DNA from: Proteobacteria bacterium UBA5122
GTDB taxonomy: Bacteria; Pseudomonadota; Gammaproteobacteria; Tenderiales; Tenderiaceae
Reading direction: 5' to 3'
DNA: 64,000 nucleotides
Assembly (NCBI GenBank): GCA_002415485.1
Contig: DHYU01000050.1
Location: 21,519-85,518 of the forward strand
Positions 3,592 to 43,033 of this stretch are shown piece after piece (within the stretch, counting starts at the first letter, position 1; every line of letters begins with the position of its first letter). The notes under the pieces are model-generated. The model was not told the origin of the DNA. It was given only the letters and a program-made list of their open reading frames with translations, and did no database searches. The translations under genes and the position numbers were made by a program.

Positions 3592-4284
3592 TTAACCTTC
3601 CGCCTTTTTCTTGGCTACATCATTACGCAAATACAGGGGCAAGGCCTGCTCAGCACTCACCGCGCCACCGGCGGCATAGATCTGCGCCGCCAGCACCGCC
3701 ACATCCTGCGCGGCGGGCAAGGCATCGGCAGCGATATCGATCACATTTGTCGCATACCGTTGTTGTAGCGGGGCTGCAAATTCTCGCCAGCCGCTCCCCA
3801 ATCCGTACCAGCCATCGCCGTCGACCGACGGCAGGGCCTCAGGTGCACACAAGGCATCGTCGGCCAAGGCCACCATACGGTCACCATCTAATTGATACGC
3901 CCCCCAATAGACCTCACCCATGCGTGCATCGATGATGGGCAGTTGTTTGGCATGGCCACTGCGGCGATAACCGCCCTGCGCCAGGGCTGCCAAGGTCGAT
4001 ACCGGCACCACCGGCAGATCGGTGCCAAAGGCAATCCCTTGGGCGACGCTGGTCGCGATGCGAACCCCGGTGAAGGCACCGGGGCCGCAGGCAAAGGCTA
4101 TTGCATCGAGTTGTTGTGGCCGCAACTGCGCCTGGGCCAACAAACGGTCGATCATCGGCAGGATGAGTTCACCGTGTTTTTTCGGTGCGAGTTCAAAGTG
4201 TTCTTCGAGTTGATTATTGATCAGCAAAGCCGCAGAACAGGCTTCGCTCGAGGTATCTAGAGCCAGGAGTTTCAAATAGGACAC
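3592..4284 (-). CDS. tsaB: tRNA t6A37 biosynthesis protein TsaB (YeaZ)
   Basis: 230 aa with N-terminal LLALDTSSEACSAAL and CGPGAFTGVRI motifs of the YeaZ/TsaB family. Neighbour of a yoaA-like helicase, as in E. coli. Confidence 0.85.
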   Translation of the reverse strand: MSYLKLLALDTSSEACSAALLINNQLEEHFELAPKKHGELILPMIDRLLAQAQLRPQQLDAIAFACGPGAFTGVRIATSVAQGIAFGTDLPVVPVSTLAALAQGGYRRSGHAKQLPIIDARMGEVYWGAYQLDGDRMVALADDALCAPEALPSVDGDGWYGLGSGWREFAAPLQQRYATNVIDIAADALPAAQDVAVLAAQIYAAGGAVSAEQALPLYLRNDVAKKKAEG

Positions 4285-4342
4285 CCATCAAATTGGCGAA
4301 ATTTCAGTCCGCCATGATAGATGGATTTAAAGCAGTGTTAAA

Positions 4343-4364
4343 CCCCGGACAAGCATGCCCGGGG
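4343..4364 (-). terminator. Hairpin terminator downstream of the small membrane-protein gene
   Basis: On the minus strand: CCCCGGGCATGCTTGTCCGGGG (6-7 bp GC stem), followed by TTTAACACTGCTTTAAA. Lies 8 nt after the stop at 4372. Confidence 0.5.
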
Positions 4365-4371
4365 TCAGCAA

Positions 4372-4521
4372 TTAACGATGACGATCGGCCGAACGAACCT
4401 TCACTGCCTCGTCACGCGGCTCGTGCAGCTTATGCGCGGTTAGCTGCAAGGTCACCAACGCCCCGATAACACCACCCATGCAAAATGCAACAACAACAGC
4501 TTCAATGATCATGCTGGTCAT
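4372..4521 (-). CDS. Small (49 aa) single-pass membrane protein, function unknown
   Basis: Track ORF is 4372..4575. The internal ATG at 4521 is preceded by a perfect AGGAGG (4529..4534) at 7-nt spacing. It has one hydrophobic helix (IIEAVVVAFCMGGVIGALVTL) followed by a basic tail. The upstream 18 codons have no RBS. Confidence 0.5.
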   Translation of the reverse strand: MTSMIIEAVVVAFCMGGVIGALVTLQLTAHKLHEPRDEAVKVRSADRHR

Positions 4522-4642
4522 AGCCAGTCCTCCTGTTTGCTGTCCCGCAGTCCCTGCGGTTTCCGTTGAACTCATTATGGCTAGCGGCTGGGGGACAAAG
4601 ACTGACTAGAGAGGTCTGGAGCAATGTTACAAAGATTTACAT

Positions 4643-6607
4643 TTAACCGGCACTGGCCTCTTGGCCACCGAGCCCGGGATCCTGCTGCTGTTTGACGTAG
4701 TTGTAGAAACGCTGCACCAGCTCCAGCTTGCGGGTACGCCGCATCGGCGGCAGACTGTCGAGAAAGACACGGCCGTAGGGTTTGTCGATCAGGCGCGGGT
4801 CGCACAGCATCATCACGCCGTAATCGTCCACGTCACGAATGAGCCGCCCCGCCCCCTGCTTGAGGCTGATCACCGCCGTCGGCACCTGGTGATCCATGAA
4901 GGGATTCCCGCCCTTGTTACGGATGGCATCGAGGCGCGCCGTCAGCACCGGGTCATCGGGGGTGGCAAAGGGCAGCTTGTCGATGATCACGCACGATAGC
5001 GCCTCACCGCGCACATCCACCCCCTCCCAGAAACTGCCCGTCCCCAGCAGCACAGCATTGCCCAACTCACGAAAACGCTGCAGCAGTTCGCTGCGCGGCA
5101 GGCTGCCCTGCACCAGCAAGGGGTAATCGATCTCCCCCTCCAGCATCTCAGCCGCCTGCTTCAGCGCGCGGTGACTGGTAAACAGCATAAAGGCACGACC
5201 TTCACTGGCGGCCAGGACCGGCAGCGCTGCCTCAACGATCTTGCGCGTGTAGTCCGGGTGATTGGGCTGTGGCAGATCGGTCGGCACGTAGAGCAAGGCG
5301 TGGTTGGGATAGTCGAACGGGCTTTGCCAGCAGCCGGTCATCGGCGCCTTGAGGCCGAGGCGGTCGGCAAAGTGCTCAAAGCCACCGTTGACGGCCAGCG
5401 TCGCCGAGGTGAAGACCCAGGCCGCCCGCTCCTGCTGCATGCGCTGCTGAAAGGGCTCGGCAATCTCCAGCGGCGTGCAGTTGAGGGCAAAGCTGCGGCT
5501 GAAGATCTCCAGCCAGTAGATGTTGTCCGGCGAGGCCTCGCCATCGAACAGGCAGAGTTTATGGAACAGCGCGACGGCGCGCTCGTGGCAGTTCTCCAGC
5601 CCCTTGCTGCGCTGTGCGCCCTCCTCCAGCAGCGGGATCAACTCGTCGAACACGCGGCGCAGATAGGCGAGCTGGTCGCAGAGTTTTTCATCCTGCTGCG
5701 CGGCCAACCACGGCATACGCTGCGCCTGACTGCCCATGGCCAGCCGCAGATCGCGGGCGGCGTATTCGAGCCGTTCGGCGACGGTCTGCAGGGCCTTGGT
5801 GTCGGAGGCCGTCTGGTGAAATTCGTTGATGGTGTCGCGCGCCAGCTCGCTCAGCTGACGGCTGCTCAAGGTCTGGCCGAAGAAGTTGCTCGCCACCTCG
5901 AGCAGCTGATGGGCCTCGTCGATGATGTAGGCATTGGCACCGGGCAGCAGCTCACCAAAGCCCCCGTGCTGCAGCACCATGTCGGCGCACAACAGGTGGT
6001 GGTTGATGACGACGATGTCCGCCTCCTGCGCCTCGCGTCGCGCCTTCATCACATGGCATTCTTTGAAATCGGGGCAGTCATTGCCCAGGCAGTTGTCGGT
6101 GGTCGAGGTCACGTATGGCCAGATCGGCGCATCCTCACTGACGGCCTTCACCTCGGCGATGTCACCGTTGTGGCTGCTCCCGGCCCAGCGGCGGATGCGC
6201 TGCAGCTGATCGACCATCTCCCGCGATGCCAATTGCCCCTCAGACTCGGTCAGTTTCAGCCGGTACCAACACAGGTAATTGGCGCGCCCCTTGAGCAATG
6301 CAACTCCCACTGGCACCGCCAGCGCCTTGCGCACCACAGGCAGGTCACGATGAAAGAGTTGGTCTTGCAGATTTTTGGTACCGGTCGAGATGACGACCTT
6401 TTTGCCGGACAGGATCGCCGGCACCAGATAGGCGAAGGTCTTGCCGGTACCGGTACCGGCCTCACAGATCAGGGTTTGGTTTTCGTCGATGGCGCGGGCG
6501 ACGGCCTCGGCCATCTCCTGCTGTTGCTGCCGCGGCCGAAAGCCGTCGATGTGGTCGGCCAGCGCACCGGCATCGCCCAGAACCGCTGCAACATCAATAT
6601 CAAACAT
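4643..6607 (-). CDS. yoaA: ATP-dependent DNA helicase, DinG family (YoaA-like, Fe-S)
   Basis: 654 aa with Walker A AGTGTGKTFAYL, DEAH box (IIDEAHQL) and a Cys cluster (C..NCLGNDCPDFKEC) typical of XPD/DinG Fe-S helicases. Its size and its tsaB neighbour fit YoaA. Confidence 0.8.
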   Translation of the reverse strand: MFDIDVAAVLGDAGALADHIDGFRPRQQQQEMAEAVARAIDENQTLICEAGTGTGKTFAYLVPAILSGKKVVISTGTKNLQDQLFHRDLPVVRKALAVPVGVALLKGRANYLCWYRLKLTESEGQLASREMVDQLQRIRRWAGSSHNGDIAEVKAVSEDAPIWPYVTSTTDNCLGNDCPDFKECHVMKARREAQEADIVVINHHLLCADMVLQHGGFGELLPGANAYIIDEAHQLLEVASNFFGQTLSSRQLSELARDTINEFHQTASDTKALQTVAERLEYAARDLRLAMGSQAQRMPWLAAQQDEKLCDQLAYLRRVFDELIPLLEEGAQRSKGLENCHERAVALFHKLCLFDGEASPDNIYWLEIFSRSFALNCTPLEIAEPFQQRMQQERAAWVFTSATLAVNGGFEHFADRLGLKAPMTGCWQSPFDYPNHALLYVPTDLPQPNHPDYTRKIVEAALPVLAASEGRAFMLFTSHRALKQAAEMLEGEIDYPLLVQGSLPRSELLQRFRELGNAVLLGTGSFWEGVDVRGEALSCVIIDKLPFATPDDPVLTARLDAIRNKGGNPFMDHQVPTAVISLKQGAGRLIRDVDDYGVMMLCDPRLIDKPYGRVFLDSLPPMRRTRKLELVQRFYNYVKQQQDPGLGGQEASAG

Positions 6608-12334: not shown

Positions 12335-13270
12335 TTACCGAACACCCGGCGCAATCAAGCTCCGCGCCGTCCCCGCCACCGGGATACATTCACCGACTGA
12401 GGCTGGGCCACACACCGAGCCATCCCACCAGATCGTCTTCGACAACTTGGCACCATCGAGGCGCGCCTTCAACAGGTTTGCCCCGCGCAGATCGGCATGA
12501 GACAGATCGGCATTGCGCAGATCGGCATGCGCCAGCGAGGCCTGTCGAAAATCGACCCCCACCAACGATGCATTACTCAAATCAGAGCCCGACAAATCCG
12601 CCAGACTCAAATTACTGTACGCCAGATTGATATCACGCAAATCGCCACCGGCCAGATTTGCTGCGGTCAGATTGGCATTACGGACGCTGGCCGCCGACAA
12701 ACTCGCCCGCCCCACGCTGAGCCCGGGCATCTGACAATTGTCCCAATTCACGCCCGCTGTTGGGGGGGCCTCACAATCGCTGTCGCCTGCACCATTGTCG
12801 CTCGGCGTCAACCAAATCGCCGCTGCCACCATCCCCGTCAACAGAACCATCATTACCACCAACGGCCACTTGGACTGGCGTTCAGTCTTCATCAGTTTTT
12901 GCAGCCGCTCAGTCCGCGCCACCCGCTCTTCGATATCCTCGACCGACTCCTCCTGCCGACGATCACCTTCGCGCTGCTCAGCGGCAGTCGTCTTTTCCCG
13001 GCTGCGCCGGTCACGCGCCAGGCGCTCATCTGCAGCACGTCGCGCAGCCTCCAATCGAGCCTGCGCCTCAGGATCGGTCATATCAGCCTTCATCACCTCA
13101 GGCACCAATGCCTCCACGTCACCCAACGCAAGCCACTCCACCTTATCAAGACTGACCAAGGCAGTGGGTTTTAAGCGACCTATCAATAATGCCTGTGAGA
13201 TCGCCTTGGCTGGAAAAGGGCCAAGGATATCGTCGCCGCGCTTGGTGTACCAAAGTGTGTGTTCAGTCAT
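12335..13270 (-). CDS. Single-pass membrane protein: N-terminal GYF_2-like domain, charged coiled segment, TM helix, C-terminal pentapeptide repeats
   Basis: 311 aa. WYTKRGDDILGPFPAKAISQALLIGRL resembles GYF_2/DUF4339. TM helix is PLVVMMVLLTGMVAAAIWL. The C-terminus is a run of A(D/N)LxX pentapeptides (ANLTAANLAGGDLRDINLAYSNLSLADLSGSDLSNASL...). Confidence 0.7.
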   Translation of the reverse strand: MTEHTLWYTKRGDDILGPFPAKAISQALLIGRLKPTALVSLDKVEWLALGDVEALVPEVMKADMTDPEAQARLEAARRAADERLARDRRSREKTTAAEQREGDRRQEESVEDIEERVARTERLQKLMKTERQSKWPLVVMMVLLTGMVAAAIWLTPSDNGAGDSDCEAPPTAGVNWDNCQMPGLSVGRASLSAASVRNANLTAANLAGGDLRDINLAYSNLSLADLSGSDLSNASLVGVDFRQASLAHADLRNADLSHADLRGANLLKARLDGAKLSKTIWWDGSVCGPASVGECIPVAGTARSLIAPGVR

Positions 13271-13534
13271 CCCGATTCTGCCGCTCCATCACCGAACCTT
13301 AAGTTTACATTGCTCTAGGCAAAGGCCAATATACTTTACATCGGCTATTTAAGCGCTTGATTTAAATAATGCATTACACCTTATCCACCTCAACCTGGAG
13401 CCATCTCAAGTTTGCCGCCATTTCAGCGTCACAAAAAAGATGAAAACATACTTACCGTCACCAATCACAACGCCGATAGGTTGTATATATGACTCCATAC
13501 AGACGACTGACGGGATAATTCAACGAGATCACTG

Positions 13535-14917
13535 ATGGAAATTAATGGCCCACAACTGCCACCACAACTCACGCAAACCAGCAGTGTTGACCTGGTGAAC
13601 TGGCGTAACGGCCAGTTATTACAGGCACTGGTGATACGTGCTGCCACTTACAATCAGCAAGCACTGCTACAGATCGGCCGCCAGCAATTTGAGACTCAAA
13701 CGACCGCCCCCCTGCAAACAGGACAGCGTTTAACAGTCGAAGTCATCAAGGCCGACACCACGCCTCCCCTGCTAAAACTCCACACCCCGATCCAAGCACC
13801 GGACCAGACCATCAGCAATCAGCTCAAGATCACGTTGCCCCGGCAACTACCGATGCCACCGCTCATCAACAATCTCAACTGGCTGCAACAAACACCGCCC
13901 CAGGCCATCGCCCACATACTCCCCAGCACCGTCATAGATGCCCTGAAGACGCTGCGACAACAGCTACCCAATCGCGAGCACATCGCCACTGCCGCTGGAT
14001 TAAAAGACGCACTCAAAAACTCAGGGCTATTTTTGGAACAAAAATTGGTACAAAGCGCCCGCCCTGCGCCCACTCCTGGCAGCGCCTCGACCACAACCAA
14101 TACCAGCCAAATGCTCAATGGCGATCTCAAAACCCAACTGACACGTCTACTGACGAGCACACAACAAGAGATCAGTCGCATCGAAAACAAACCCCAGGGT
14201 AATGAGCGTTCCCTCAATGCGTTGCAGGCGCGACTGGCCACCTTGCGTCAACTGGGCAGTTTATTACAAAGACCACCTGCCACCACGGTCCGTCCATTAT
14301 CCGTCCATGCCTTGACGCCACTGTTCAGCTCAGGCCCACCACTGCTACCGGACATCAACGACAATAAACAGACACAACTGCGCGGCCCCGCTTCTCGCGG
14401 AACAGCTAGCCCGATAGCGACCCTCGCCTTTCAGGCCAGTGTTTTGATGATTTTGAAGGAACTCGCCCGACAAACCGAAGGCGCCTTGGCGCGTGTTCGA
14501 TTGAATCAATTGAATGCACTGCCCACCCAGGAGCAACCCAACCCACCGTTGTTATTCGAAGTACCCATACGACACAATGAGACGATTCGTCCGATATCAT
14601 TGCGCGTGGAGGAAGAACAGCGGCAACAAACTGGGGAAGAGGAACATCACCAACGTCACACGGTACATCTATCACTCGACCTCGAAAATCTCGGCCCATT
14701 GCACGCCCGTGTCTCGTTAATCAATGAAAAGATTCTAGTGACCATGTGGGCCGAACGTACCGAGACACTCACCATAATTTCTAAACATCTACACGAACTA
14801 CACCAGCGCCTGCGTGAAGCAGGGATTCAACTGGACCCGATACAGTGTCTACAAGGCACACCACCCGAAACGACCGGAAAAACCACGCAACGACTGACAC
14901 TCAACGAAAAAGCATGA
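13535..14917 (+). CDS. FliK-like protein (flagellar hook-length control protein C-terminal domain), second copy
   Basis: 460 aa, Q/P/T-rich. The C-terminal segment HTVHLSLDLENLGPLHARVSLINEKILVTMWAE...LHQRLREAGIQLD has the same pattern as the C-terminus of the canonical FliK at 35526..36839. Confidence 0.6.
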   Translation: MEINGPQLPPQLTQTSSVDLVNWRNGQLLQALVIRAATYNQQALLQIGRQQFETQTTAPLQTGQRLTVEVIKADTTPPLLKLHTPIQAPDQTISNQLKITLPRQLPMPPLINNLNWLQQTPPQAIAHILPSTVIDALKTLRQQLPNREHIATAAGLKDALKNSGLFLEQKLVQSARPAPTPGSASTTTNTSQMLNGDLKTQLTRLLTSTQQEISRIENKPQGNERSLNALQARLATLRQLGSLLQRPPATTVRPLSVHALTPLFSSGPPLLPDINDNKQTQLRGPASRGTASPIATLAFQASVLMILKELARQTEGALARVRLNQLNALPTQEQPNPPLLFEVPIRHNETIRPISLRVEEEQRQQTGEEEHHQRHTVHLSLDLENLGPLHARVSLINEKILVTMWAERTETLTIISKHLHELHQRLREAGIQLDPIQCLQGTPPETTGKTTQRLTLNEKA

Positions 14918-15204
14918 AACATACACATGACAAACCGAAAAAGGCCGTTGCTCTGGAATGGGACGGGTTCACCGCACCCAAGGTGACTGCAAAAGGAAGT
15001 GGTGAGCTGGCGGAACAGATCCTGGCGATTGCGCGAGCACACGATATTCCGCTGCAAGAAAATACGCCTCTCGTGGAACTGTTATCACAGCTGGACCTGG
15101 GCGATGAGATTCCGGAGACATTGTACGTCGCCGTTGCACAAATCATTGCCTTCGCTTACTACCTATCTGAGCGCTATTCAGTGATGAAAGATACAGAAGC
15201 GTAA
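14914..15204 (+). CDS. Free-standing FlhB C-terminal-domain-like protein (EscU/YscU/FlhB cytoplasmic fragment, no NPTH, no TM)
   Basis: 96 aa. The ATG at 14914 overlaps the upstream stop (ATGA). Aligns by eye with in-window FlhB residues just after NPTH (APxVxAKG, IA, DxPL, EIPExLYxAVAQxxAF). Confidence 0.7.
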   Translation: MKHTHDKPKKAVALEWDGFTAPKVTAKGSGELAEQILAIARAHDIPLQENTPLVELLSQLDLGDEIPETLYVAVAQIIAFAYYLSERYSVMKDTEA

Positions 15205-15222: not shown

Positions 15223-15606
15223 TTAGCTACTCACTCCATGCAAACGTTGCAACAATTCTGCCTCTTCACGCGTCAACCCACAGCGCTGCATGATTTCATC
15301 AATCCCTGCTCCTTCGCGCAGTAATTCAATGGCCTGACTGTAATGCTGACCTGAGACATCGTGCTCATCGAGTTTTTCCTGCCGGTCAGACAGATTGTGC
15401 ATACGCTTTTCAATCCGAGCCAAATGGCCGCCAACGCCAGCAGCACCTGCATACAAGGCCTTTACATCCTGCTCAACTGCGGCCAAACGCGATGTTTGTT
15501 CTGCTAACTGCTGCTGAGCAATCTGCAACTTACGACCAAGCAATATCACCAATCCCAGCGCAATGCTGGCCAATACCACGGCGACTATAGAAATAACACT
15601 ATCCAT
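15223..15606 (-). CDS. DUF2802-like protein (conserved last gene of polar-flagellar che/mot clusters)
   Basis: 127 aa with an N-terminal TM helix, a coiled segment and a C-terminal helix-turn-helix-like GIDEIMQRCGLTREEAELL. Occupies the same position as the gene after cheW in Pseudomonas. Confidence 0.6.
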   Translation of the reverse strand: MDSVISIVAVVLASIALGLVILLGRKLQIAQQQLAEQTSRLAAVEQDVKALYAGAAGVGGHLARIEKRMHNLSDRQEKLDEHDVSGQHYSQAIELLREGAGIDEIMQRCGLTREEAELLQRLHGVSS

Positions 15607-15623: not shown

Positions 15624-15815
15624 TCACACATATTCATCAATGCGCGGATGACCACCGTCATCTTTCTTTTTATCTTCATCTTTGGCCGTTTGCTCGCGAA
15701 AGGGACGGTTTCGTCGACGACGCTCACCTTCAGACTCCTCTTCAGATTCTATACGACGGCCTGGGCGTTGCGGCCAGATCGGCGGCAACGGGCCGTTGAT
15801 ATCGAAATCCGCCAT
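15624..15815 (-). CDS. Small highly charged hypothetical protein (63 aa)
   Basis: The ATG at 15815 is preceded by AGAGGGG. The sequence is P/R/E/K/D-rich with no recognisable family. Coding status is uncertain. Confidence 0.3.
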   Translation of the reverse strand: MADFDINGPLPPIWPQRPGRRIESEEESEGERRRRNRPFREQTAKDEDKKKDDGGHPRIDEYV

Positions 15816-20063: not shown

Positions 20064-21125
20064 TCAGACCGCTTCCGTCAATGCTGGACCTACCGTATTC
20101 AAGGCAAGAATCCGATCCGCCAATCCGGCCTCGGCAATCGCCGCCGGCATACCATATATGACACTTGTTGCCTCATCCTGAGCCCAAACAGTCGCGCCCT
20201 GGGCCTTCAACGCCCGCGCACCCTCGCGACCATCTGCCCCCATCCCCGTCAATACCACTGCTAATACATCACCTTTATATACTTCGGAGGCTGAACGAAA
20301 GGTAATGTCCACACTTGGCTTATATGTTTGCCCCACCGTCCCGGGATAAACACGTAAACTGACGTGACCGCGCGAGCCCGTCAATTCCATTTGAGTCCCC
20401 CCCGGAGCCAGATAGGCTGTCCCGGGCTTTAATACATCGCCATCCGCAGCCTCTTTCACCGAGATCGCAGATAACTTATCCAGACGCTGTGCAAAGGCCG
20501 GAGTAAACGACGCCGGCATGTGCTGAATCAACACTATCGGCAGTGGGAAATTTGCGGGCAACCGTGTTAGCACTTCCTGTAATGCAACAGGCCCTCCGGT
20601 TGAGGTGCCTATCGCGACCAAACGGTAGCTACCTTTTGGTTTAGGTGGTGATGGTGGACGTGGTGGCATTGCCGCTGCTCGCGCACCCGGCTTGGTCGAC
20701 AATGTGGGCACCGGTTTATGCTTAAGGCCTCGCGCCCCGATCAACCGCACACGCGCACATAATTGACGCTTCGCCAACTCTTTGTCCTGCGAAATATCGT
20801 CCATGTTCTTGGGCAAAAAATCCATCGCGCCAGCCTCTAGCGCGTCCAGCGTGGCCTGAGCACCTTGCGTGGTCAGCGATGAGAACATCAACACTGGCGT
20901 AGGACAACGCTCCATGATCTTACGCACGGCACTGATGCCATCCATCACTGGCATTTCAATATCCATCGTGACGACATCTGGTTTTAATTTCACGACTTGT
21001 TCGACAGCCTCGCGACCGTCAGCGGCCGCACCGACCACTTCTATTTTTGGATCGGCATTTAAAATCTCAGTCAAACGACGTCTAAAAAAACCCGAGTCAT
21101 CAACCACTAAGACTCGCACTGGCAT
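20064..21125 (-). CDS. cheB: Chemotaxis protein-glutamate methylesterase CheB (cluster 1)
   Basis: REC domain (VLVVDDSGFFRR, DIEMPVMDG) plus a methylesterase domain (GTSTGGP, IQHMP, GMGADG). Confidence 0.95.
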   Translation of the reverse strand: MPVRVLVVDDSGFFRRRLTEILNADPKIEVVGAAADGREAVEQVVKLKPDVVTMDIEMPVMDGISAVRKIMERCPTPVLMFSSLTTQGAQATLDALEAGAMDFLPKNMDDISQDKELAKRQLCARVRLIGARGLKHKPVPTLSTKPGARAAAMPPRPPSPPKPKGSYRLVAIGTSTGGPVALQEVLTRLPANFPLPIVLIQHMPASFTPAFAQRLDKLSAISVKEAADGDVLKPGTAYLAPGGTQMELTGSRGHVSLRVYPGTVGQTYKPSVDITFRSASEVYKGDVLAVVLTGMGADGREGARALKAQGATVWAQDEATSVIYGMPAAIAEAGLADRILALNTVGPALTEAV

Positions 21126-21137
21126 GAATCACTACTC

Positions 21138-23345
21138 CTACATGCGGCCGCCATAGGCCTCCATCAGCCCTGGCATATCTAGAATGAGCGCGATCCCGCC
21201 ATTGCCTGTGATCGTTGCGCCCGAAATACCCTTTGTCCCTTGCAGCAATGCACCGAGGGGTTTGATGACAACCTCCTCCTGTCCCACCAGATTGTCCACC
21301 AAACAACCAATATGCTGATTCCCAATCGTAGTGACGACAACATAGCCCTGCCCTGCAGGCTGCTCCTGATAATGACCGTTCACCAGCCACTTTCCTAGTT
21401 TAACCAGAGGAACGGCTTTTTCGCGGATAATCACCACACGTTTACCGTCAACGGTACTCAGCTTGGCAGAGTCAAGATCAAATATTTCACTCACATTTGC
21501 CAGCGGAATGGCAAAAAACTGTTTACCCAACACCACCATCAAGGTAGGCATAATGGCGAGCGTCAGCGGCAACTTGATGATAATTCGACTGCCCTTACCC
21601 TCAGTCGAGTCGACCTCTACCACACCGTTGAGCTGGGTGATGCGCGTTTTAACGACATCCATCCCAACCCCACGACCAGAGACATCAGAAATCTCGGTTT
21701 TGGTCGAAAATCCCGGCGCGAAAATCAGGTTATAACAGGCCTTTTCATCCAGACGAGCAGCAGATTCTTCATCCAATACCCCTTTTGAAACTGCACTGCG
21801 GCGCAAGACATCGGCATTCATGCCTTTGCCATCATCCTCGATGACCAACAGGATATGATCCCCTTCCTGTTGCGCAGAGAGTATCACCCTTCCTGTACGC
21901 GGCTTGCCCTTAGCTTCACGCTCATCTGGCATTTCAACACCGTGATCCACCGCATTGCGCACCAAATGCACCAGTGGGTCGGCCAATGCCTCGACCAGAT
22001 TTTTATCTAAATCAGTTTCCTCACCGTAGAGTTCTAGCTCTACTTCTTTTTTCAGGCTACGGGCCAAATCCCGTACCACACGAGGAAAACGGCCAAAGAC
22101 CTTTTTGATCGGTTGCATACGGGTCTTCATGACCGAGGTTTGCAAATCAGATGTCACTAGATCGAGATTGGCGATTGCCTTGGCCACTTCTTCATCGGCC
22201 ATGGTTGTTTTCAATGTCGCCATCCGATTACGCACCAACACCAGCTCACCCACCAAGTTCATGATGTCATCTAAGCGTTTGGTATCGACGCGCACTGTCG
22301 TCTCAGCCGCTGGCGCCTCTTTGGCAGGGGCCGCTGCCGGTTTCTTTACATCTGCCACAGGGGCTGGCGCCGGCTCTACCTTAGGCTTGGGCTTGGGGGC
22401 CTCTTTTGCTGCAACTGCAGGGGCAGGCTCTACCTTAGGTGGAGGCGATGGTGCGGCTGCAGCCTTTGGTGCGGCAGCGGGCCGTTCAGCAGGCGGGGTA
22501 GTTCGAGCCGCTGCCGTTTTTTTCTTTTCTTCCAGTTCGTCGAGCAGCGCCTCAAACTCATCATCACTAATTTCATCTGACGTGGGCGCAGCTCCTGTCG
22601 CTGCAACTGGTCTATTGGGGGCAGGCTTGGCCTCCTCTTGCCCACTCAACTGATCCAGCAGCGCTTCAAATTCTTCATCAGTAATATCATCGCCTTGCTG
22701 TGCTGTCGCAGGAGTGGCTGCCACTTTTGCAGGTGAACCATGTAATTCATCCAGTAACGCTTCAAACTCATCATCAGAGATCTCGTCTCCGGAACCGGTG
22801 CTAGCACTGACCTTAGCGGGTGCTGATGGGACGGGAGGAGCCGATGGTTCTTCAAAAAGGTCATCCACCCCAAAACTGAGTGCCTCATCTGCAGGTGCAA
22901 TGCCTGGGGCTTCCTCCACCACAGGGGTGGGAGCCGGCGCAGCTCCTCCTGGCGCTTCACCACGCAGAATAGCCTCTAGGCCACCGATGAGCGCAGGGTC
23001 GGCCTCTTCCGGATCAACACCAGAGCGAATACTATCCATCATGTCATTGACGACATCCACAACCCGCAGAATGATGTCCATCATTGCCGCGTCTATAGAT
23101 CTCTCTCCCTGCCGCAACAGGTTAAAAACATCCTCTGCACGGTGACAAACCGTCACCAAGGCCGTCAGGTTAAGAAACCCAGCCCCGCCTTTAACCGTGT
23201 GAAAACCACGAAAGACTGCATTCAGCAGATTGACATCTTCCGGCGTTCGTTCCAGCTCAACAAGTTGTTCCCCCAACAGCTCGAGGATCTCTCCAGCCTC
23301 TAGCAGGAAGTCTTGTAAGATGTCATCACTCAGATCGATTGCCAT
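21138..23345 (-). CDS. cheA: Chemotaxis histidine kinase CheA (cluster 1)
   Basis: 735 aa. HPt with FRGFHTVKGGAGFL, a long low-complexity linker, HATPase (DDGKGM, GRGVGMDVV) and a C-terminal CheW-like domain. Confidence 0.95.
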   Translation of the reverse strand: MAIDLSDDILQDFLLEAGEILELLGEQLVELERTPEDVNLLNAVFRGFHTVKGGAGFLNLTALVTVCHRAEDVFNLLRQGERSIDAAMMDIILRVVDVVNDMMDSIRSGVDPEEADPALIGGLEAILRGEAPGGAAPAPTPVVEEAPGIAPADEALSFGVDDLFEEPSAPPVPSAPAKVSASTGSGDEISDDEFEALLDELHGSPAKVAATPATAQQGDDITDEEFEALLDQLSGQEEAKPAPNRPVAATGAAPTSDEISDDEFEALLDELEEKKKTAAARTTPPAERPAAAPKAAAAPSPPPKVEPAPAVAAKEAPKPKPKVEPAPAPVADVKKPAAAPAKEAPAAETTVRVDTKRLDDIMNLVGELVLVRNRMATLKTTMADEEVAKAIANLDLVTSDLQTSVMKTRMQPIKKVFGRFPRVVRDLARSLKKEVELELYGEETDLDKNLVEALADPLVHLVRNAVDHGVEMPDEREAKGKPRTGRVILSAQQEGDHILLVIEDDGKGMNADVLRRSAVSKGVLDEESAARLDEKACYNLIFAPGFSTKTEISDVSGRGVGMDVVKTRITQLNGVVEVDSTEGKGSRIIIKLPLTLAIMPTLMVVLGKQFFAIPLANVSEIFDLDSAKLSTVDGKRVVIIREKAVPLVKLGKWLVNGHYQEQPAGQGYVVVTTIGNQHIGCLVDNLVGQEEVVIKPLGALLQGTKGISGATITGNGGIALILDMPGLMEAYGGRM
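22530..22790 (-). repeat. Three in-frame copies of an acidic peptide motif in the CheA P1-P3 linker
   Basis: GDEISDDEFEALLDELHG, GDDITDEEFEALLDQLSG and SDEISDDEFEALLDELEE at about aa 186-272 of CheA, separated by A/P-rich spacers. Confidence 0.85.
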
Positions 23346-23357
23346 AGTGCACCCGAC

Positions 23358-24098
23358 TTAGAAGCCCAAACTCGATAGCAGGTCATCAACCTCATCCTGC
23401 CCTTTCACAATATTTCCTTGATCTATCCCTTCGATTGAAGGCCCTGTCGCCTCAATGGGATTTACTTCCTTTTTCTCAGGCTGAGCTTTGAGTTTCTGAC
23501 CAGAAATCCGAATCAAATCGACCAAGCCCGACTCCACATCCTGGACCAGAGTGATTACACGACGGATAATCTGTCCAGTCAGGTCCTGGAAGTCCTGTGC
23601 CATCATGATATCGGTCAACTTGCTGTTAAATTGGGGCATGGTTTCGCCCATCCAGTCAAAAAACTGGTCAAGTTCACGACTCAGCTCGCGAAACTCCTCA
23701 ACAGCCATATCACGGCTACGAAAACGTCCCCAGTCGGCGTGCAGTTTGGCCATACGGGTTTGCAATTCATCGGATAACGGTTGCAACTCCTCAACAGCCC
23801 CCAAGGTCTTATCTGCGGCCTGCTCTGTCATGGTGATGACATAATTAAGGCGCTCCTTGGCATCCGGTATGTCGGTTTCAGCCAGGGTGGTTATTTTGGT
23901 ATCAATCTGGAAATTAGCCAGGGTGTTATGTAACTCGCGTGTCAGCTTGCCCAATTCCTGAAACAACTGACTTTCACGTATCGCAGACAGCGCCTCCAGT
24001 GACTCCTGCGCCCCCTGCTCATCCCCCGCTTCCAGGTGTGCTACTAGGCTCCTGGCGAATTCGAGGCATTGTTCACTGCCGACAAGTGCTTCCGACAT
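23358..24098 (-). CDS. cheZ: CheY-P phosphatase CheZ
   Basis: 246 aa between cheY and cheA, with the catalytic-region DFQDLTGQ motif and the C-terminal CheY-binding peptide DDLLSSLGF. Confidence 0.9.
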   Translation of the reverse strand: MSEALVGSEQCLEFARSLVAHLEAGDEQGAQESLEALSAIRESQLFQELGKLTRELHNTLANFQIDTKITTLAETDIPDAKERLNYVITMTEQAADKTLGAVEELQPLSDELQTRMAKLHADWGRFRSRDMAVEEFRELSRELDQFFDWMGETMPQFNSKLTDIMMAQDFQDLTGQIIRRVITLVQDVESGLVDLIRISGQKLKAQPEKKEVNPIEATGPSIEGIDQGNIVKGQDEVDDLLSSLGF

Positions 24099-24131
24099 TT
24101 TGTTCCCTCAAACTTATTCAACAACCGATAC

Positions 24132-24512
24132 TTAACCGCCAGCTTCTATGCGCTCAAAAATCTTATCGATTTTTTCCTTCAAAGTGCCCGCGGTAAACGG
24201 TTTGACGATGTAGCCGTTGACACCTGCCTGGGCGGCCTCAACGATCTGCTCGCGCTTCGCCTCTGCCGTCACCATCAGCACCGGCAACTTGCATAGACGC
24301 TCATCAGCCCGAACTGCCTTCAGCAGATCGATTCCCTGCATACCCGGCATATTCCAATCCGTTACCAGGAAATCGAAATTGCCTGACTGCAACATCGGCA
24401 ACGCGGTCAAGCCATCATCGGCCTCCGACGTATTGTTGAATCCCAAATCACGCAATAAATTTTTGATAATCCGCCTCATCGTCGAAAAATCATCAACGAT
24501 CAGGATTTTCAT
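24132..24512 (-). CDS. cheY: Chemotaxis response regulator CheY (cluster 1)
   Basis: [25 protein letters not shown]...DWNMPGM...VKPFT. Start set at the ATG at 24512. The track start at 24608 adds 32 unlikely codons. A TTG at 24524 is an alternative. Confidence 0.9.
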
Positions 24513-24797
24513 GTTCTTATCCAAACCAGAAACCTCCGTGCTAGCAAGACGACTCCGTGACTGCATATCCCTTACTATTTTCGGGCAAGTAGTTAGTGAG
24601 CAATCCACCCATTATTACTATCTGCAGTTTAGAAAAAATATTTAGGAATCTCGTGTTGATTTTTGTACAAAAAAGATATGTGAATCAAAATTTTCCAATT
24701 CACATGGCAGCAATGTGCATTTGCCACCCAATCAGCAAATCACCACAAAATATTAAGGAAATTGAGCGCCGCCGATATCCATACCGGCAGCCTGCTC

Positions 24798-27719: not shown

Positions 27720-29819
27720 CTACGCGGCAATCTGTTTACCCACAGTGGCGACGATCTTGATCTGCACGTCGTCCGGTATCTCGTTGTACGACAGCACCTT
27801 CAAGCTCGCCAATGCGCTACGCAGCAACTTCGCCAATACGGGGCGCACATTCGAACTCACCAACAACACTGCCGGTTGCCCCGTTGCCTCCTGTCGCTGC
27901 ACAGTCTCCGACAGGCTGCTGAACATGCTCTCCGCCAGCCCCGGTTCCAGCCCCAGGCCGCCACCGTTCTGAATGGAGTCTTGCAATATCTGTTCCAACC
28001 CTGGATCCAGCGTAATCACTGGCAACTCACCTGCTAAGCCATTGATTTTTTGAATGATTGACCGCCCCATGGCTTCGCGGGTCAGCGCCGTCAAAATGGC
28101 GGAATCCTGGGTTCTGCTGCCGGCATCCGCCAATGTTTCGACGATTCGACGCATATCGCGAATGGGGATCTGCTCCTCCAACAGACTTTGGAGCACCTTC
28201 ACTACCGAGCCTAGTGGCAATACCTCCGGCACCAAACCTTCCACCAGTTTAGGCGCGGCCTTGCCCAGATTATTGAGCAATTGCTGTACCTCCTCACGCC
28301 CCAGCAACTCATGCGCATGCGTTGTTAAGATATGACTCAGGTGAGTGGCGATCACTGTACTAGGATCCACCACGGTATAACCCATGGTCTGCGCCTGGTC
28401 TTTATTACCAGGCTCAATCCATATTGCATCCAAACCGAAGGCGGGGTCCTTGGTCGTAATCCCCGGCAAATTACCAAAGACCTGACCTGGATTGATCGCC
28501 AATTCACGGTCCGGATAAACATCCGCCTCCCCCACGGTCGCCCCCAGCAAGGAAAGCCGGTAGACATTGGGCGCAAGCTCCAGGTTGTCGCGAATATGCA
28601 CTGATGGGATCAAAAAGCCGAGATCTTGCGTGAGCTTCTTACGTACGCCCTTGATCCGCCCCATAAGTTGACCACCCTGATTCTTATCAACCAATGGAAT
28701 CAGGCGATACCCCACCTCCAAACCAATGGTGTCGACAGGCAATACATCATCCCAACTCAGATCCTTGGACTCAGCACTCGGCTCCGGTGGTGGCGGCGCA
28801 GCCTCTTCAGCCGCAACGCCCTCTTCACGACGCTTGGCCATGTAATAGCCAATCCCACCCGTCAGTCCTGCCAACAGCAGAAATACAAAATTAGGCATCC
28901 CCGGGATGATCCCCATCACACCCAAGATGCCGGCAGTCACATAAAGCGCACGCGGGTCAGCCAACAGTTGCGACGTCATCTGCGTACCCATGTCTTGCTC
29001 ACTGGAGACACGTGTCACAATAATCGCGGTCGCTGTCGACAGGATCAGCGCCGGGATCTGCGCCACCAAGCCATCACCAATAGTCAACAAGGTATAAACA
29101 CGAGCCGCATCGGAAAATGGCATCCCATGCTGCACCATACCGATCGCCAAACCACCAATAAGATTGATAAAAAGAATCAGCAAACCTGCAATCGCGTCAC
29201 CACGCACAAACTTGCTGGCACCATCCATCGAGCCATAAAAGTCCGCTTCACGGATAATGTCTTCACGCCGCCGCTGAGCCTCTTCCTGGCCAATGATGCC
29301 GGCATTCAAATCTGCATCGATAGCCATCTGTTTACCTGGCATCGAGTCCAAGGTGAAACGGGCAGACACTTCAGAGACACGTCCAGCACCCTTGGTGACA
29401 ACCACAAAGTTGATAATCACCAGGATCGCAAATACCACCAGACCGACAGCGTAGTTACCACCAATTACAAACTCACCAAAGGCCTCGATCACCTTACCTG
29501 CCGCATCGGTTCCCGTGTGCCCTTCCAACAACACCACCCGTGTCGACGCGATGTTCAACGCCAAACGCAATAGGGTCGCAATCAGAATTACCGTTGGAAA
29601 CACACCCAAATCCAATGGCCGATTGGTATAAATCACCGCCAGCAATACCACCATCGATAAAGCGATACTGAAGGTGAACAAGATGTCCAACATAAATGCC
29701 GGCAATGGCACAACCACCATCGCCAGCATCAAGAAAATAAATACAGGCACGCCCAAGCCAGACTTTAGTGTTTTGACGATTGCGTCCATCGTTACATTTG
29801 GCTTAGCCATACTAATCAC
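27720..29819 (-). CDS. flhA: Flagellar export apparatus protein FlhA
   Basis: 699 aa with an 8-TM N-terminal domain, the FHIPEP region and a large cytoplasmic domain. Overlaps the flhB stop. Confidence 0.95.
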   Translation of the reverse strand: MISMAKPNVTMDAIVKTLKSGLGVPVFIFLMLAMVVVPLPAFMLDILFTFSIALSMVVLLAVIYTNRPLDLGVFPTVILIATLLRLALNIASTRVVLLEGHTGTDAAGKVIEAFGEFVIGGNYAVGLVVFAILVIINFVVVTKGAGRVSEVSARFTLDSMPGKQMAIDADLNAGIIGQEEAQRRREDIIREADFYGSMDGASKFVRGDAIAGLLILFINLIGGLAIGMVQHGMPFSDAARVYTLLTIGDGLVAQIPALILSTATAIIVTRVSSEQDMGTQMTSQLLADPRALYVTAGILGVMGIIPGMPNFVFLLLAGLTGGIGYYMAKRREEGVAAEEAAPPPPEPSAESKDLSWDDVLPVDTIGLEVGYRLIPLVDKNQGGQLMGRIKGVRKKLTQDLGFLIPSVHIRDNLELAPNVYRLSLLGATVGEADVYPDRELAINPGQVFGNLPGITTKDPAFGLDAIWIEPGNKDQAQTMGYTVVDPSTVIATHLSHILTTHAHELLGREEVQQLLNNLGKAAPKLVEGLVPEVLPLGSVVKVLQSLLEEQIPIRDMRRIVETLADAGSRTQDSAILTALTREAMGRSIIQKINGLAGELPVITLDPGLEQILQDSIQNGGGLGLEPGLAESMFSSLSETVQRQEATGQPAVLLVSSNVRPVLAKLLRSALASLKVLSYNEIPDDVQIKIVATVGKQIAA

Positions 29820-30984
29820 CTACGCCTTTAGGCTTAACTACATTGCCATCTGCATCGTAGTGCATATCATCTGGCACCTCGACATTAGGCATATTAATTT
29901 CAGAAGACCCACTCTTCCCAGGCTTCTGCCGTAAATGAAAGACGAAGGCCAACACCTGGGCGACAGCCAGATACAAACCCTCTGGAATTTCTTGATCCAA
30001 TTCGGTGGTGTGATAAATCGCCCGCGCCAATGGAGGCGCAGATAAGATGGGAACATTGTTTTCCTGGGCGATTCGACGTATTTCAAAGGCCACAAAATCA
30101 GCCCCCTTGGCGACCACGATCGGTGCACGCATCTTATCTTGATCATATTTGATCGCAACCGAGAAGTGGGTTGGGTTGGTAATGACCACATCCGCCTCAG
30201 GCACTGCCTGCATCATACGACGGATCATTACTTCCATCTGTGTTTGACGAATGCGCGACTTCAGCTCAGGACTACCTTCCGTATCCTTATTCTCCTGTTT
30301 GACTTCCTGTTTGGTCATCTTCAGTTGCTTGCGGTGATTCCAGGCCTGGAATGGCACATCCACAACAGCAATAAGAATCATCGTCAGGCTAACTAACAAG
30401 AACACCCAAACCACCATCAAGGAGCCGTGTTCAATAGCCTGCTCCAGGGGTTCGCGAGCCAATACCAACACCTCGTCCATGAACCACCACAAAAGCACAA
30501 CACCCAAGCCCATAATGACAGCGAATTTGACTATTGATTTACCCAACTCCATCAAGGCCTGGGTGCCCACCATTTTTTTGACACCCTTAAGGGGATTCAT
30601 TTTGCTTGGCTTGGGTACCAATGCCTGAGTTGAAAAGTTCCAACCACTCATTGCCAAAGAACCGACTATTGCAGATGCAAGCATCACCAACAAAAATGGT
30701 GTCAATGATGACAAGGCAATCGCAATCGACTCCATAAATGCATTTAATCCGAGAGAACTATTAAAAACTTGTTCACGATCTAGTGAAAAACTACCGCGCG
30801 CAATATCGAACATTGCCTCAACAGTCCAATGCCCAAATATCAGGATACTCACAGCACCACAAATCAGCATTACAGTTGTTGTGAGTTCCTTGGAACGCGC
30901 CACCTCACCCTTTTTGCGCGCATCCGCCAGCCTCTTTGCCGTGGGTTCTTCTGACTTGTCTTGACCATCGTTATTCTCAGCCAT
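29812..30984 (-). CDS. flhB: Flagellar export switch protein FlhB
   Basis: 390 aa with N-terminal EEPTAKRLADARKKGEVARSKEL, four TM segments and the autocleavage motif NPTH (VVITNPTHFSVAI). Confidence 0.95.
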   Translation of the reverse strand: MAENNDGQDKSEEPTAKRLADARKKGEVARSKELTTTVMLICGAVSILIFGHWTVEAMFDIARGSFSLDREQVFNSSLGLNAFMESIAIALSSLTPFLLVMLASAIVGSLAMSGWNFSTQALVPKPSKMNPLKGVKKMVGTQALMELGKSIVKFAVIMGLGVVLLWWFMDEVLVLAREPLEQAIEHGSLMVVWVFLLVSLTMILIAVVDVPFQAWNHRKQLKMTKQEVKQENKDTEGSPELKSRIRQTQMEVMIRRMMQAVPEADVVITNPTHFSVAIKYDQDKMRAPIVVAKGADFVAFEIRRIAQENNVPILSAPPLARAIYHTTELDQEIPEGLYLAVAQVLAFVFHLRQKPGKSGSSEINMPNVEVPDDMHYDADGNVVKPKGVGD

Positions 30985-35525: not shown

Positions 35526-36839
35526 CTAGGCGTAGAAGTCGATTGCGCCGTTTAGGCCGTCGACACCTTCAACCACTGTATCGCGGCCACTGGCAATCTC
35601 ATGACCAGCCGAGCCAGATCGCTGATCATCACGACCACCATCTTGTGCCTGCTGTTGACGGCGATCTTTAAGCGATTGATCGGTCACCTGGGCATCTGCC
35701 AAGTTAAAGCCTTGGGCATTCAGCATTTCACGCAGTCGTGGCATAGAGCTATCTATGATATCTCGTACTGCGGCATGCTGAGAGCTGATCGTTACCCTGG
35801 CCTGATCATCATTGAGCTCTATCCTCACCTCGATAGGCCCCAAACGTTCAGGATTCAAACGTATTTCAGCAGTTTGCACCTTGTCGCGCACCATCCAGGT
35901 AATACGATTGGCAAAGGCATTCGACCAGCCAGGATCCTGAACGGGCAGTGGAATGGCGGTCGAAAGCGGCGCGGCTTGAGCCACAGCGACAATAGGTCTA
36001 GCCCCATTTATCAATGAAGATGCCGCCGTCATCCATGCCTGAGGCTGCTCGCCGCCGGATTGACGACCGCCGGAGTTACCCCCCAAATCCGTGCCGCCTC
36101 CCCCTTGACCTGTTTGAGCCATTTGATTCATTAAGGCGCTCATCTTAACCTGACGAATCACATCAGCTTCTTTCTTTTCTACTGTTTCAGCAACCTTGGG
36201 GCGCGCGATCATCTCTTCCGCCTGTTCTGTCGGCGAGGCATTCGCTAGCTCGGTCGCCAACGGCTTCGAACCCTTGGCTTCCAAGCCAAATTCAGCATTG
36301 AATGGCAATGGAACATCGGTACGTCCCTGAACACTCTGCGCGATAACCGCTGCCGCAGAGGCTGGCATATTCGCCGGTAAAGGCTTGAGCTCCGCTTGAG
36401 GAGAAATATACAGTTGATGTTGCTGCAGGAACCCGATAATTGCCTCTTCATCCCCTTCTTGTAACAGGGCCTGAAACTCCTGCAGCACTCCATCCAACTC
36501 AGGTGCGGCACTCACCGGCCCTAGCTCACCGGCCTGTAATTGAGCCAACAGATCTTTAAATATCTGCGGCAACTCATTGCTACCGTCTGCAAACAATTGC
36601 GGCAGCCCGCTGCCCCCTTCGGCAAACAGTTGCCCCAACAACTCGACAGGCATCGCACCTGGCGGCACAGGCAAACGTCCATTGGCCGTCAATGCCTGCC
36701 CGGCTGCCATATATTGAGACAAAAACAGACCACCACTAACCAGTTGATTACCCTCCATTTTTGGAGGAGCCACACTAAAGCCCACCTCTCCACTCTTAGG
36801 TGGATTCAGCGATAACAATGGAGAAAGTCCTGTGTTCAT
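35526..36839 (-). CDS. fliK: Flagellar hook-length control protein FliK
   Basis: 437 aa, A/Q/G/P-rich. C-terminal Flg_hook-type domain: AEIRLNPERLGPIEVRIELNDDQARVTISSQHAAVRDIIDSSMPRLREMLNAQGFNL. Confidence 0.85.
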   Translation of the reverse strand: MNTGLSPLLSLNPPKSGEVGFSVAPPKMEGNQLVSGGLFLSQYMAAGQALTANGRLPVPPGAMPVELLGQLFAEGGSGLPQLFADGSNELPQIFKDLLAQLQAGELGPVSAAPELDGVLQEFQALLQEGDEEAIIGFLQQHQLYISPQAELKPLPANMPASAAAVIAQSVQGRTDVPLPFNAEFGLEAKGSKPLATELANASPTEQAEEMIARPKVAETVEKKEADVIRQVKMSALMNQMAQTGQGGGGTDLGGNSGGRQSGGEQPQAWMTAASSLINGARPIVAVAQAAPLSTAIPLPVQDPGWSNAFANRITWMVRDKVQTAEIRLNPERLGPIEVRIELNDDQARVTISSQHAAVRDIIDSSMPRLREMLNAQGFNLADAQVTDQSLKDRRQQQAQDGGRDDQRSGSAGHEIASGRDTVVEGVDGLNGAIDFYA

Positions 36840-38040: not shown

Positions 38041-38051
38041 GCTATCTACAC

Positions 38052-38669
38052 CTAAAACAAATCAATTTCGCCTTCGATAGGCTTAGACTCCAAGGTATCC
38101 AAGTAACGAGTCTCGCGTTCGATAATCGTATTATTGTGCAATGATCTTAGTTTCTTCATACGGACCTTACCCGACATAGGGTAATACTGAACCTTCCTAG
38201 GATAGATATCACCCACATCTTCGGCGATTAGTTTTAGACCTTCCATTCGAATAAATTCATGCACAAACTGAATATTCTTACTGCCAATATTGGTCATTTT
38301 CTCGAGAATCTTACCACCACCAAATATTTTGATCTCAAGATTTTCACGGCGCCCACCATGCTTCAGTATCGAGTTGATCAATGCCTCCATCGCATAGTTG
38401 CCATACCGTGTCGCCATGCTTCCCCATGCAGAGTTGGCATCATGCTGTCTTTCGGGCTGACTAGCCGGGAGCATAAAGTGATTCATGCCACCGATGCTAA
38501 ACACCCTGTCTCTGACGCAAGCGGACACACAAGAGCCCAATACAGTAACAATTACTTCATCATAGGTAGTAACATAAAACTCACCCGGCAAAATCTTGGC
38601 CGCATTTATTTCCTGAGCCTTATCCCAATATCTGTTTATATTCTCAAATCCGGGGAGCACAGGCTTCAT
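38052..38669 (-). CDS. cheD: Chemoreceptor glutamine deamidase CheD
   Basis: [10 protein letters not shown] and the catalytic-Cys motif [11 protein letters not shown]. Start chosen at the ATG at 38669, preceded by GGAG. The track start at 38714 is a TTG overlapping the cheR stop and cannot be excluded. Confidence 0.85.
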
Positions 38670-43024: not shown

Positions 43025-43033
43025 AGTTATCTC

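Follow-up and report, generated by a model that had tools for sequence, protein, structure and literature searches.

How type III secretion machines change from one class of substrate to another has been asked for decades, and the locus analysed here raises that question in a particular form: what would a flagellated bacterium do with soluble versions of FliK and FlhB, the two partners of the flagellar export-specificity switch, when it also encodes the canonical proteins? The window (a 64,000-nt stretch of contig DHYU01000050.1, to whose positions all coordinates refer) carries two overlapping genes, fliK2 and flhX, as well as the canonical genes with which they have to be compared:

13535-14917, + strand: fliK2, an ATG-initiated open reading frame (ORF) of 460 aa with a C-terminal FliK-type T3S4 switch domain (Pfam Flg_hook).
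14914-15204, + strand: flhX, 96 aa, by Pfam and NCBIfam homologous to the C-terminal piece that FlhB yields on cleavage (FlhB-CC, also CCD), here encoded as a protein by itself.
14914-14917, + strand: ATGA overlap of the fliK2 stop (TGA) and the flhX start (ATG), read from the sequence.
29812-30984, - strand: canonical full-length FlhB with NPTH at residues 269-272, the presumed docking partner or paralogue of FlhX.
35526-36839, - strand: canonical FliK, 437 aa, upstream of fliL, with a Flg_hook match at E 1.2e-25.

We suggest, with a probability that we put at roughly 55%, that FliK2-FlhX is an accessory cytoplasmic module of the export-specificity switch, by which a spare, exchangeable FlhB 'lock' is provided or regulated. 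The two genes encode soluble versions of both switch-contact partners, each with its key surface kept. A sequence-only reading had already taken the pair for a soluble copy of the two partners; all four of its statements on the sequence are confirmed. Pfam, NCBIfam, profile comparison, AlphaFold2 and Foldseek agree in pointing to a FliK-C-like protein coupled to a stand-alone FlhB-CC copy, and that reading, which is partly supported by the analyses presented here, was a reasonable interpretation.

The smaller protein corresponds to what is left of FlhB after cleavage. FlhX is 37% identical to residues 277-354 of the in-window FlhB (BLASTP, E 2e-14), in line with the one-third identity that had been estimated by eye, and because the NPTH motif of that FlhB occupies residues 269-272, an alignment which starts at FlhB 277 (BLASTP) or at about 274 (HMMER against Salmonella FlhB) begins just after the cleavage site. 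Likewise Pfam Bac_export_2 (PF01312) matches FlhX at profile positions 262-334 of 335 only (E 5.5e-18). Ten residues precede the homologous part of FlhX and nine follow it, where the in-window FlhB runs 36 residues further. No NPTH and no transmembrane region were found in the FlhX sequence, as the sequence-only reading had stated, and a membrane region is lacking because only those 10 residues precede the part homologous to FlhB. Compared with FlhB, FlhX has no membrane domain, no counterpart of the first half of the cytoplasmic domain and no C-terminal tail (~35 residues), and, having neither the four transmembrane helices nor the linker nor NPTH autocleavage, it is not a full-length FlhB/SctU protein.

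The best NCBIfam model for FlhX is TIGR00789 flhB_rel, 'FlhB-like flagellar biosynthesis protein' (residues 9-85, E 1.1e-24), a family that includes Bacillus subtilis YlqH. The score of 86.4 bits lies under the curated cut-off of 117.35, and NCBI therefore gives such proteins a generic EscU/YscU/HrcU label; the cut-off seems to be tuned to another clade and so makes no argument against homology.

AlphaFold2 models of both proteins were built on 27-sequence alignments. That of FlhX (predicted local distance difference test, pLDDT, 76.8) was matched by Foldseek to chain B of Salmonella FlhB-C (3b0z_B) with a target-normalised template modelling (TM) score of 0.85, a root mean square deviation of 1.4 A and 38% identity. 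Its best PDB matches are the chain B entries, that is, the post-cleavage fragments, of Salmonella and Aquifex FlhB-C, followed by EscU, PscU, YscU, SpaS and Spa40, so that FlhX is predicted to fold as FlhB-CC does after cleavage. In Salmonella FlhB, early substrates dock in a pocket formed by A286, P287, A341 and L344 (PMC13344023), and both halves of this pocket have counterparts in FlhX by HMMER alignment:

14974-14979, + strand: FlhX A21-P22, the counterpart of A286-P287 in Salmonella FlhB and one half of the pocket.
15136-15147, + strand: FlhX A75...I78, equivalent to Salmonella FlhB A341...L344, the other half.

Among 27 diverse FlhX sequences P22, A75 and I78 are invariant and A21 is conserved in at least 90%, and FlhX thus keeps the hydrophobic pocket by which FlhB docks rod/hook-type (early) substrates.

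Is the larger protein a second FliK, as had been claimed? In part. Pfam places Flg_hook (PF02120) at FliK2 residues 366-445 with E 5.2e-18, so that the FliK-like character of the C-terminus holds firm. Its resemblance to the in-window FliK stands at profile level, where the FliK2-family profile (27 homologues) aligns with that FliK over 118 columns (hhalign probability 89.9%, E 1.7e-6), and does not stand in a direct BLASTP comparison of the two proteins, which gave no significant similarity (best E 1.3); the same profile matches the Salmonella FliK C-domain (2rrl) at E 7.5e-4. The AlphaFold2 model of FliK2 (pLDDT 72.5, predicted TM score 0.60) has the following layout, after a predicted disordered stretch at residues 1-20:

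13616-13783, + strand: N-terminal beta domain, residues 28-83, five predicted strands (AlphaFold2, block pLDDT 73-82).
13799-14263, + strand: helical middle domain, residues 89-243 (pLDDT mostly 83-96 over 101-220, with a dip to 57-74 at 171-190).
14267-14404, + strand: variable linker, residues 245-290, predicted disordered (pLDDT <50).
14549-14854, + strand: T3S4-type switch domain, residues 339-440 (AlphaFold2: strands in 339-406, helix 409-428).

A long helix is predicted at residues 303-327, and the tail past residue 440 is predicted to be disordered. At probability 1.00 Foldseek matched the model to the substrate-specificity-switch domain of PscP (5cuk) and to FliK-C (2rrl).

The FliK C-terminal domain (IPR021136/PF02120) is the only FliK-like domain that we find in FliK2, and the likeness is confined to the last ~120-130 residues and the terminal motif. 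For the first ~300 residues, the sequence and fold searches of the PDB returned no homologue (only the C-domain was matched), Pfam gave only a sub-threshold S1-like hint at E 0.042 over the beta domain, and hhalign comparison of residues 1-300 with 23 in-window proteins gave probabilities of 2% or less throughout, that against the in-window FliK being 0.1%. AlphaFold2 and hhalign thus reveal no unfolded ruler/export domain of the FliK-N type in FliK2; instead, the first two-thirds are predicted to be folded, as a beta and a helical domain, and are unrelated to the FliK ruler. Both domains have recognisable motifs in the family alignment (W-R-V-G-x-x-L-Q-A and G-Q-x-L-x-L-x-V in the beta domain; LPRQ, SGLFLE and DLK in the helical domain, with P102, Q104, G164, E168, D197 and K199 invariant). 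The family set, comprising at least 34 database homologues and 70 genome loci, varies in length within the linker region (residues 245-290). In addition, two or three copies of the beta domain are apparent, from the repeated G-Q-x-L-x-L-x-V, in the homologues of loci L003, L009, L019, L053 and others, and because these copies occur in the longer homologues, the length range of 358-625 aa partly reflects domain duplication beyond linker length.

FliK2 carries, besides the T3S4 domain, a terminal motif of the canonical FliK type:

14897-14914, + strand: FliK2 terminal motif L-T-L-N-E-K-A (family consensus hydrophobic-hydrophobic-D-E-[KR]-A).

Position -6 is L, V, I or F and position -5 is L, I or V in 63 of 65 sequences each, position -4 is D in 51 of the 65, and E, K/R and A/T/V/I follow. 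The two canonical ends that we compared, GVDIFA of E. coli FliK and AIDFYA of the in-window FliK, have hydrophobic-D-x-x-A in common, and FliK2 keeps a terminal motif of this FliK type, of the form hydrophobic-hydrophobic-D/N-x-x-A. An earlier idea, that the tail mimics FlhB strand beta-1 (VVITN) to complete the FlhX sheet, was dropped for this simpler match to the FliK motif; beta-augmentation of the FlhX sheet by the FliK2 tail is a possible arrangement.

The two genes appear to be coupled in translation. Both were called by an independent gene caller (in a public contig with identical proteins), which, together with our reading of the sequence, confirms the stop/start overlap that had been noted. 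No strong Shine-Dalgarno sequence was found before the flhX ATG in the window, and a longer GTG start at 14845 was considered for flhX and set aside, the homologues giving it no support. In a scan for FlhX relatives with one genome per species, which returned at least 554 stretches and of which the best 80 loci were examined, a FliK2 homologue lies directly upstream of FlhX on the same strand in 70 of 80, and the same 4-nt overlap is present in 62 of the 73 scored junctions, indicating translational coupling of fliK2 and flhX. Since the arrangement is found again in 70 of the 80 related loci it is far beyond chance. At least 49 of them have homologues of cheW, parC or motB within 5 kb downstream, which upholds the claim that such pairs are conserved near che/mot genes.

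The 80 loci come from Chromatiales, Candidatus Tenderia, Thiogranum, Thiohalobacter, Ectothiorhodospiraceae and Spongiibacteraceae, and further from Oceanicoccus, Oleiphilaceae, Hahella, Cycloclasticus, Methylobacter, Stutzerimonas/Pseudomonas and others, the nearest matches to the window pair being in Candidatus Tenderia and Chromatiales metagenome-assembled genomes. The synteny is identical in the loci of Stutzerimonas (the Pseudomonas stutzeri group), whose FliK2 is 28% identical to the window protein and colinear with it over 424 residues (E 6e-22) and whose FlhX is 59% identical (E 6e-35). Across genome loci FlhX family members are 54-73% identical, whereas the median identity of FliK2 to the window protein is 30%; mean pairwise identities are 56% for FlhX and 28% for FliK2, so that FlhX is under strong constraint and FliK2 is fast-evolving. 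Ten loci lack an adjacent FliK2: six are from Methylobacter, two are cut by a contig end and two have an insertion between the genes. In L036 (Aestuariirhabdus) a 369-aa gene on the opposite strand (3720-4829, - strand), with two CxxCH-type motifs, splits fliK2 from flhX, and in L016 a gap of ~2.4 kb separates them.

A search of the full library with the FlhX profile returned 9217 matching clusters; among the top 150, almost every protein stands alone and has a length of 73-198 aa, in most cases 86-170 aa. The two longer two-domain matches among these 150 are an FlhB fragment and an unrelated protein with two FlhB-C-like domains and a transglycosylase-like part. As an observation aside, P0181 (a database protein of 437 aa) has two tandem FlhB-C-like repeats that include the pre-cleavage strand, with NEES or SDKQ in place of NPTH, and a C-terminus resembling a lytic transglycosylase by eye, a different use of the FlhB-C fold.

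FlhX was reportedly defined by Pallen et al. in 2005. By sequence and gene order, the window pair is an orthologue of the Pseudomonas fliK2-flhX operon and, because the module is orthologous to a named operon, it is already known and not a discovery. In P. putida KT2440, PP_4328 was named fliK2, being FliK-like in its C-terminal domain only and having a FliA-dependent promoter, and PP_4329 is flhX, an orthologue of H. pylori HP1575 (34% identical); together they make up a class IV operon where the flagellar cluster ends, beside flrD, cheW, parP and parC, and the authors describe the function of fliK2 as uncharacterised and the role of FlhX as not well understood (Leal-Morales et al., bioRxiv 10.1101/2021.08.29.457346). 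The window pair shares with that operon the gene content and gene order, the place beside cheW-flrD at the cluster's end, the opposite orientation to the cluster, the restriction of FliK likeness to a C-terminal domain and the likeness of FlhX to processed FlhB; it differs in coming from another, uncultured gammaproteobacterial lineage and, compared with the Stutzerimonas loci, in a conserved divergent pentapeptide-repeat gene upstream of fliK2. The statement in the sequence-only reading that such pairs have no experimentally defined role needs correcting: apart from the pair being named in P. putida, H. pylori HP1575/FlhX was shown to stand in for FlhB-CC as a 'spare part', so that export goes on after deletion of that domain (Wand et al. 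2006, in the summary given in bioRxiv 10.1101/2021.08.29.457346). In the literature searched, no phenotype of a mutant in fliK2 or in flhX was found for any bacterium other than H. pylori. Comparative studies (including PMC9321776) regularly list FlhX with the flagellar type III proteins, and a linked flhX-fliK pair is mentioned in Nitratiruptor (PMC9321776). What we add is small: conservation of the FlhX pocket, the FliK2 terminal motif, a predicted N-terminal fold that is not that of FliK, and the extent of the stop/start coupling.

The FlhX of H. pylori (HP1575; Wand 2006, Smith 2009, Pallen 2005) is, like that of the window, a stand-alone homologue of post-cleavage FlhB, and it is the only FlhX for which substitution for FlhB-CC is known experimentally; unlike the window gene, it is not reported as coupled to a FliK-like gene. 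Salmonella FliK-C and FlhB-CCD have the same two domain types, early-substrate pocket residues and type of terminal motif, but there FliK is secreted as a ruler and FlhB-CCD belongs to a membrane protein of the gate, whereas the window pair consists of two separate soluble proteins encoded together, besides canonical FliK and FlhB. The injectisome proteins SctP and SctU (PscP substrate-specificity-switch domain 5cuk, PscU-C 5cul) are the best or near-best fold matches of the FliK2 and FlhX models; unlike that pair, the window proteins belong to flagellar sequence families (Flg_hook, flhB_rel), and no injectisome genes are present in the window.

In Salmonella, FlhB-CCD keeps the export gate in its early mode and early substrates depend on it for export, and it vanishes in a FliK-dependent manner at hook-basal body completion, apparently by degradation; it has been proposed that the folded T3S4 region of FliK makes secretion pause, whereupon the last five residues, reported to be necessary to flip the switch, engage and destabilise FlhB-CCD (Chevance et al., mBio 2026, PMC13344023). 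We suggest that termination-reinitiation at the overlap would yield FliK2 and FlhX at about 1:1, and that the two would bind each other via the contact that FliK-C makes with cleaved FlhB. FliK2 would keep a pool of spare FlhB-CC soluble and control when FlhX is free, a role that is plausible because isolated FlhB-CCD is without the strand and helix of the N-terminal half and, in Salmonella, is unstable once released. FlhX would be exchanged onto cleaved FlhB at the export gate, which is plausible because the H. pylori protein can replace FlhB-CC. Polar flagellates build a new flagellum in each generation, when sigma-28 may still be active, and the module would re-supply or tune an ejectable 'early-mode lock' once sigma-28 is active. 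As an outcome, gates may be re-armed for early export, premature switching may be corrected, or a switched gate may be stabilised by a CCD without its tail. A more specific form of the proposal, which we hold only tentatively and consider rather improbable as it stands, is a cytosolic FliK2-FlhX heterodimer in which the T3S4 domain and terminal motif clamp the spare FlhB lock, to be exchanged on and off cleaved FlhB, so that the hook-to-filament switch, taken to be irreversible, would become resettable or error-corrected.

Several observations weigh against the spare-lock proposal. The contact between FliK2 and FlhX is one that we infer by analogy only, and the confidence of both AlphaFold2 models is moderate (pLDDT 72.5 for FliK2, 76.8 for FlhX). 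The window FliK2 has N where the family has D at position -4, its last residue is constrained by the ATGA overlap, and conservation of the D-E-K tail could partly reflect ribosome binding for flhX, through purine-rich codons, and not the protein. The flhX gene of Methylobacter is a solitary one, flanked by a queF-like gene and by psd, for phosphatidylserine decarboxylase (by eye in L070, 5001-5285), and no FliK2 was detected in L060, L063, L065, L066, L070 and L076 within the fetched flanks of up to 5 kb; since FlhX occurs there with no FliK2 beside it, as it reportedly does in H. pylori, FlhX can do without FliK2. Nor was any FliK2-FlhX fusion seen among the best 150 of the 9217 FlhX-like cluster representatives. 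As to timing, experimental evidence for sigma-28 control comes from P. putida only (bioRxiv 10.1101/2021.08.29.457346), and in the window there is one candidate element:

13472-13479, + strand: sigma-28 (FliA) -10-like octamer GCCGATAG, situated 56-63 nt ahead of the fliK2 ATG, with a poorly matching -35 region.

The octamer is identical to the -10 of the TAAAG-N16-GCCGATAG site before the in-window flagellin gene. GCCGATA is not enriched in the window (10 found, 6.8 expected), nor is CCGATA upstream of FliK2 (9 of 65 loci, with ~5 expected). The octamer is therefore only suggestive as a putative FliA promoter, and with a poor -35 and no enrichment in the window or the loci we make no claim of FliA control for this pair. 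The flagellin site itself (60127-60160, - strand) is a textbook sigma-28 promoter upstream of a 273-aa flagellin gene; divergent from that gene lies one for an MptE-like (PF01973) protein of 845 aa (60251-62788, + strand), a candidate flagellin-modification (Maf-type) factor.

Of the alternatives to a spare lock, the one that survives best is that the two proteins are mutual decoys acting off the gate, FlhX mopping up rod/hook-type substrates and cytoplasmic FliK while FliK2 captures ejected FlhB-CCD, with the result that the switch is clean and irreversible or that immature basal bodies are shielded from premature switching. An early-substrate pocket without a membrane anchor, a T3S4 domain and terminal motif without a FliK-like ruler, and late (FliA-dependent) expression in P. 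putida are all consistent with such sinks, as is the finding that the fidelity of switching in Salmonella is affected both by released FlhB-CCD and by slowly secreted FliK (PMC13344023), and most of the data are compatible with this model. We nevertheless consider it unlikely and favour a spare, exchangeable lock with a handler over a pure decoy. Decoys fit badly with obligatory co-translation, since two of them made 1:1 and expected to bind would for the most part cancel each other out, and with the work in H. pylori, where FlhX, as summarised from Wand et al., works at the gate in place of FlhB-CC.

Less probable still is a second ruler with a second lock, where FliK2 would be exported late, FlhX would replace ejected FlhB-CCD at the gate and FliK2 would strip it off, adding an ordered step to late export or controlling the length of another structure. 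FliK2 has the complete switch domain and terminal motif, a long, variable and ruler-like linker, a length that ranges from 358 to 625 aa between taxa, and disordered residues 1-20 that could be an export signal. Yet residues 28-243 are predicted to be stably folded, the helical part with high confidence, unlike the unfolded N-domain of FliK, and hhalign finds no similarity to the FliK N-region; no obvious gate-recognition motif was seen in the FliK2 N-terminus, and no known second length-controlled structure is encoded nearby. Finally, that the genes are decaying fliK and flhB duplicates without present function, or a chance pair of ORFs, is hardly credible and effectively refuted by the conservation of the pair: the rapid evolution of FliK2 (median identity 30%) and the sub-threshold TIGR00789 score (86.4 against 117.35) might suggest it, but in 70 of 80 loci, from many gammaproteobacterial families, both genes are intact and their synteny is kept, FlhX identity among these loci is 54-73% and its pocket residues do not vary, thousands of clusters match its profile (the best 150 nearly all stand-alone), transcription has been shown in P. 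putida (bioRxiv 10.1101/2021.08.29.457346), and a frameshift or stop was seen in one orthologue only (L048).

The surroundings are those of a gammaproteobacterial polar-flagellum cluster on the - strand, with fliK2-flhX at its che/mot edge on the opposite strand, as had been described before. In order of transcription the scanned ORFs run fliK, fliL, fliM, fliP, fliR, flhB, flhA, flhF, a FleN/FlhG-like ATPase and fliA, and then cheY, cheZ, cheA, cheB, motA-like, motB-like, ParA-like, a long CheW-like gene, cheW, a 63-codon ORF and the DUF2802 gene. The last of these faces the pair:

15223-15606, - strand: DUF2802 gene (FlrD-like), convergent with the pair (Pfam PF10975, E 7e-25).

Its stop codon and that of flhX are 18 nt apart; it is the last gene on the flhA...cheW operon side of the cluster and the same neighbour is present in most related loci. 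In P. putida it is named flrD (bioRxiv 10.1101/2021.08.29.457346). FliK2 therefore adjoins flrD(DUF2802)-cheW-parP-parC-motDC, on the other strand, and the position upstream of fliL in the fliE-R region is held by the 437-aa FliK (35526-36839).

Some neighbouring genes deserve mention in their own right. Divergent from fliK2 lies a gene for a pentapeptide-repeat protein of 311 aa (12335-13270, - strand) with a weak N-terminal GYF_2-like match; a homologue occupies the same place in 36 of the 80 related loci, some of which lack che genes downstream, and past this homologue there are usually genes for Memo and AMMECR1. In Chromatiales/Tenderia-like lineages the pentapeptide-repeat gene may accompany fliK2-flhX as a conserved neighbour; in Stutzerimonas it is absent. 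The 63-codon ORF between cheW and the DUF2802 gene (15624-15815, - strand) has no Pfam match, is also present in public gene calls and has homologues at the same place in four related loci (L002, L015, L017 and L018). A second chemosensory set (36973-45539, - strand), additional to the cheYZAB set at 20064-24608, lies inside the flagellar cluster between fliK and putative fliJ/fliI (assigned by position and size only) and consists of CheB, CheD, CheR, a 920-aa PAS/HAMP chemoreceptor, a 171-aa ORF, CheA and a CheY-like receiver.

To return to the question from which we started, fliK2-flhX is a natural, soluble and co-expressed version of the two switch partners, found in hundreds of gammaproteobacterial species, and the model of FlhB-CCD ejection has made its function more accessible to testing. 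If FliK2 and FlhX bind each other, they would offer a convenient subject for structural and biochemical work on the FliK-C/FlhB-CC contact and a test of lock replacement in trans, as well as a possible account of accurate switching in polar flagellates. Were exchange of the lock by a FliK2-FlhX heterodimer to prove true, it would be, in these polar flagellates, the functional counterpart of the Fluke/FlhB-CCD dual-inhibitor system of Salmonella.

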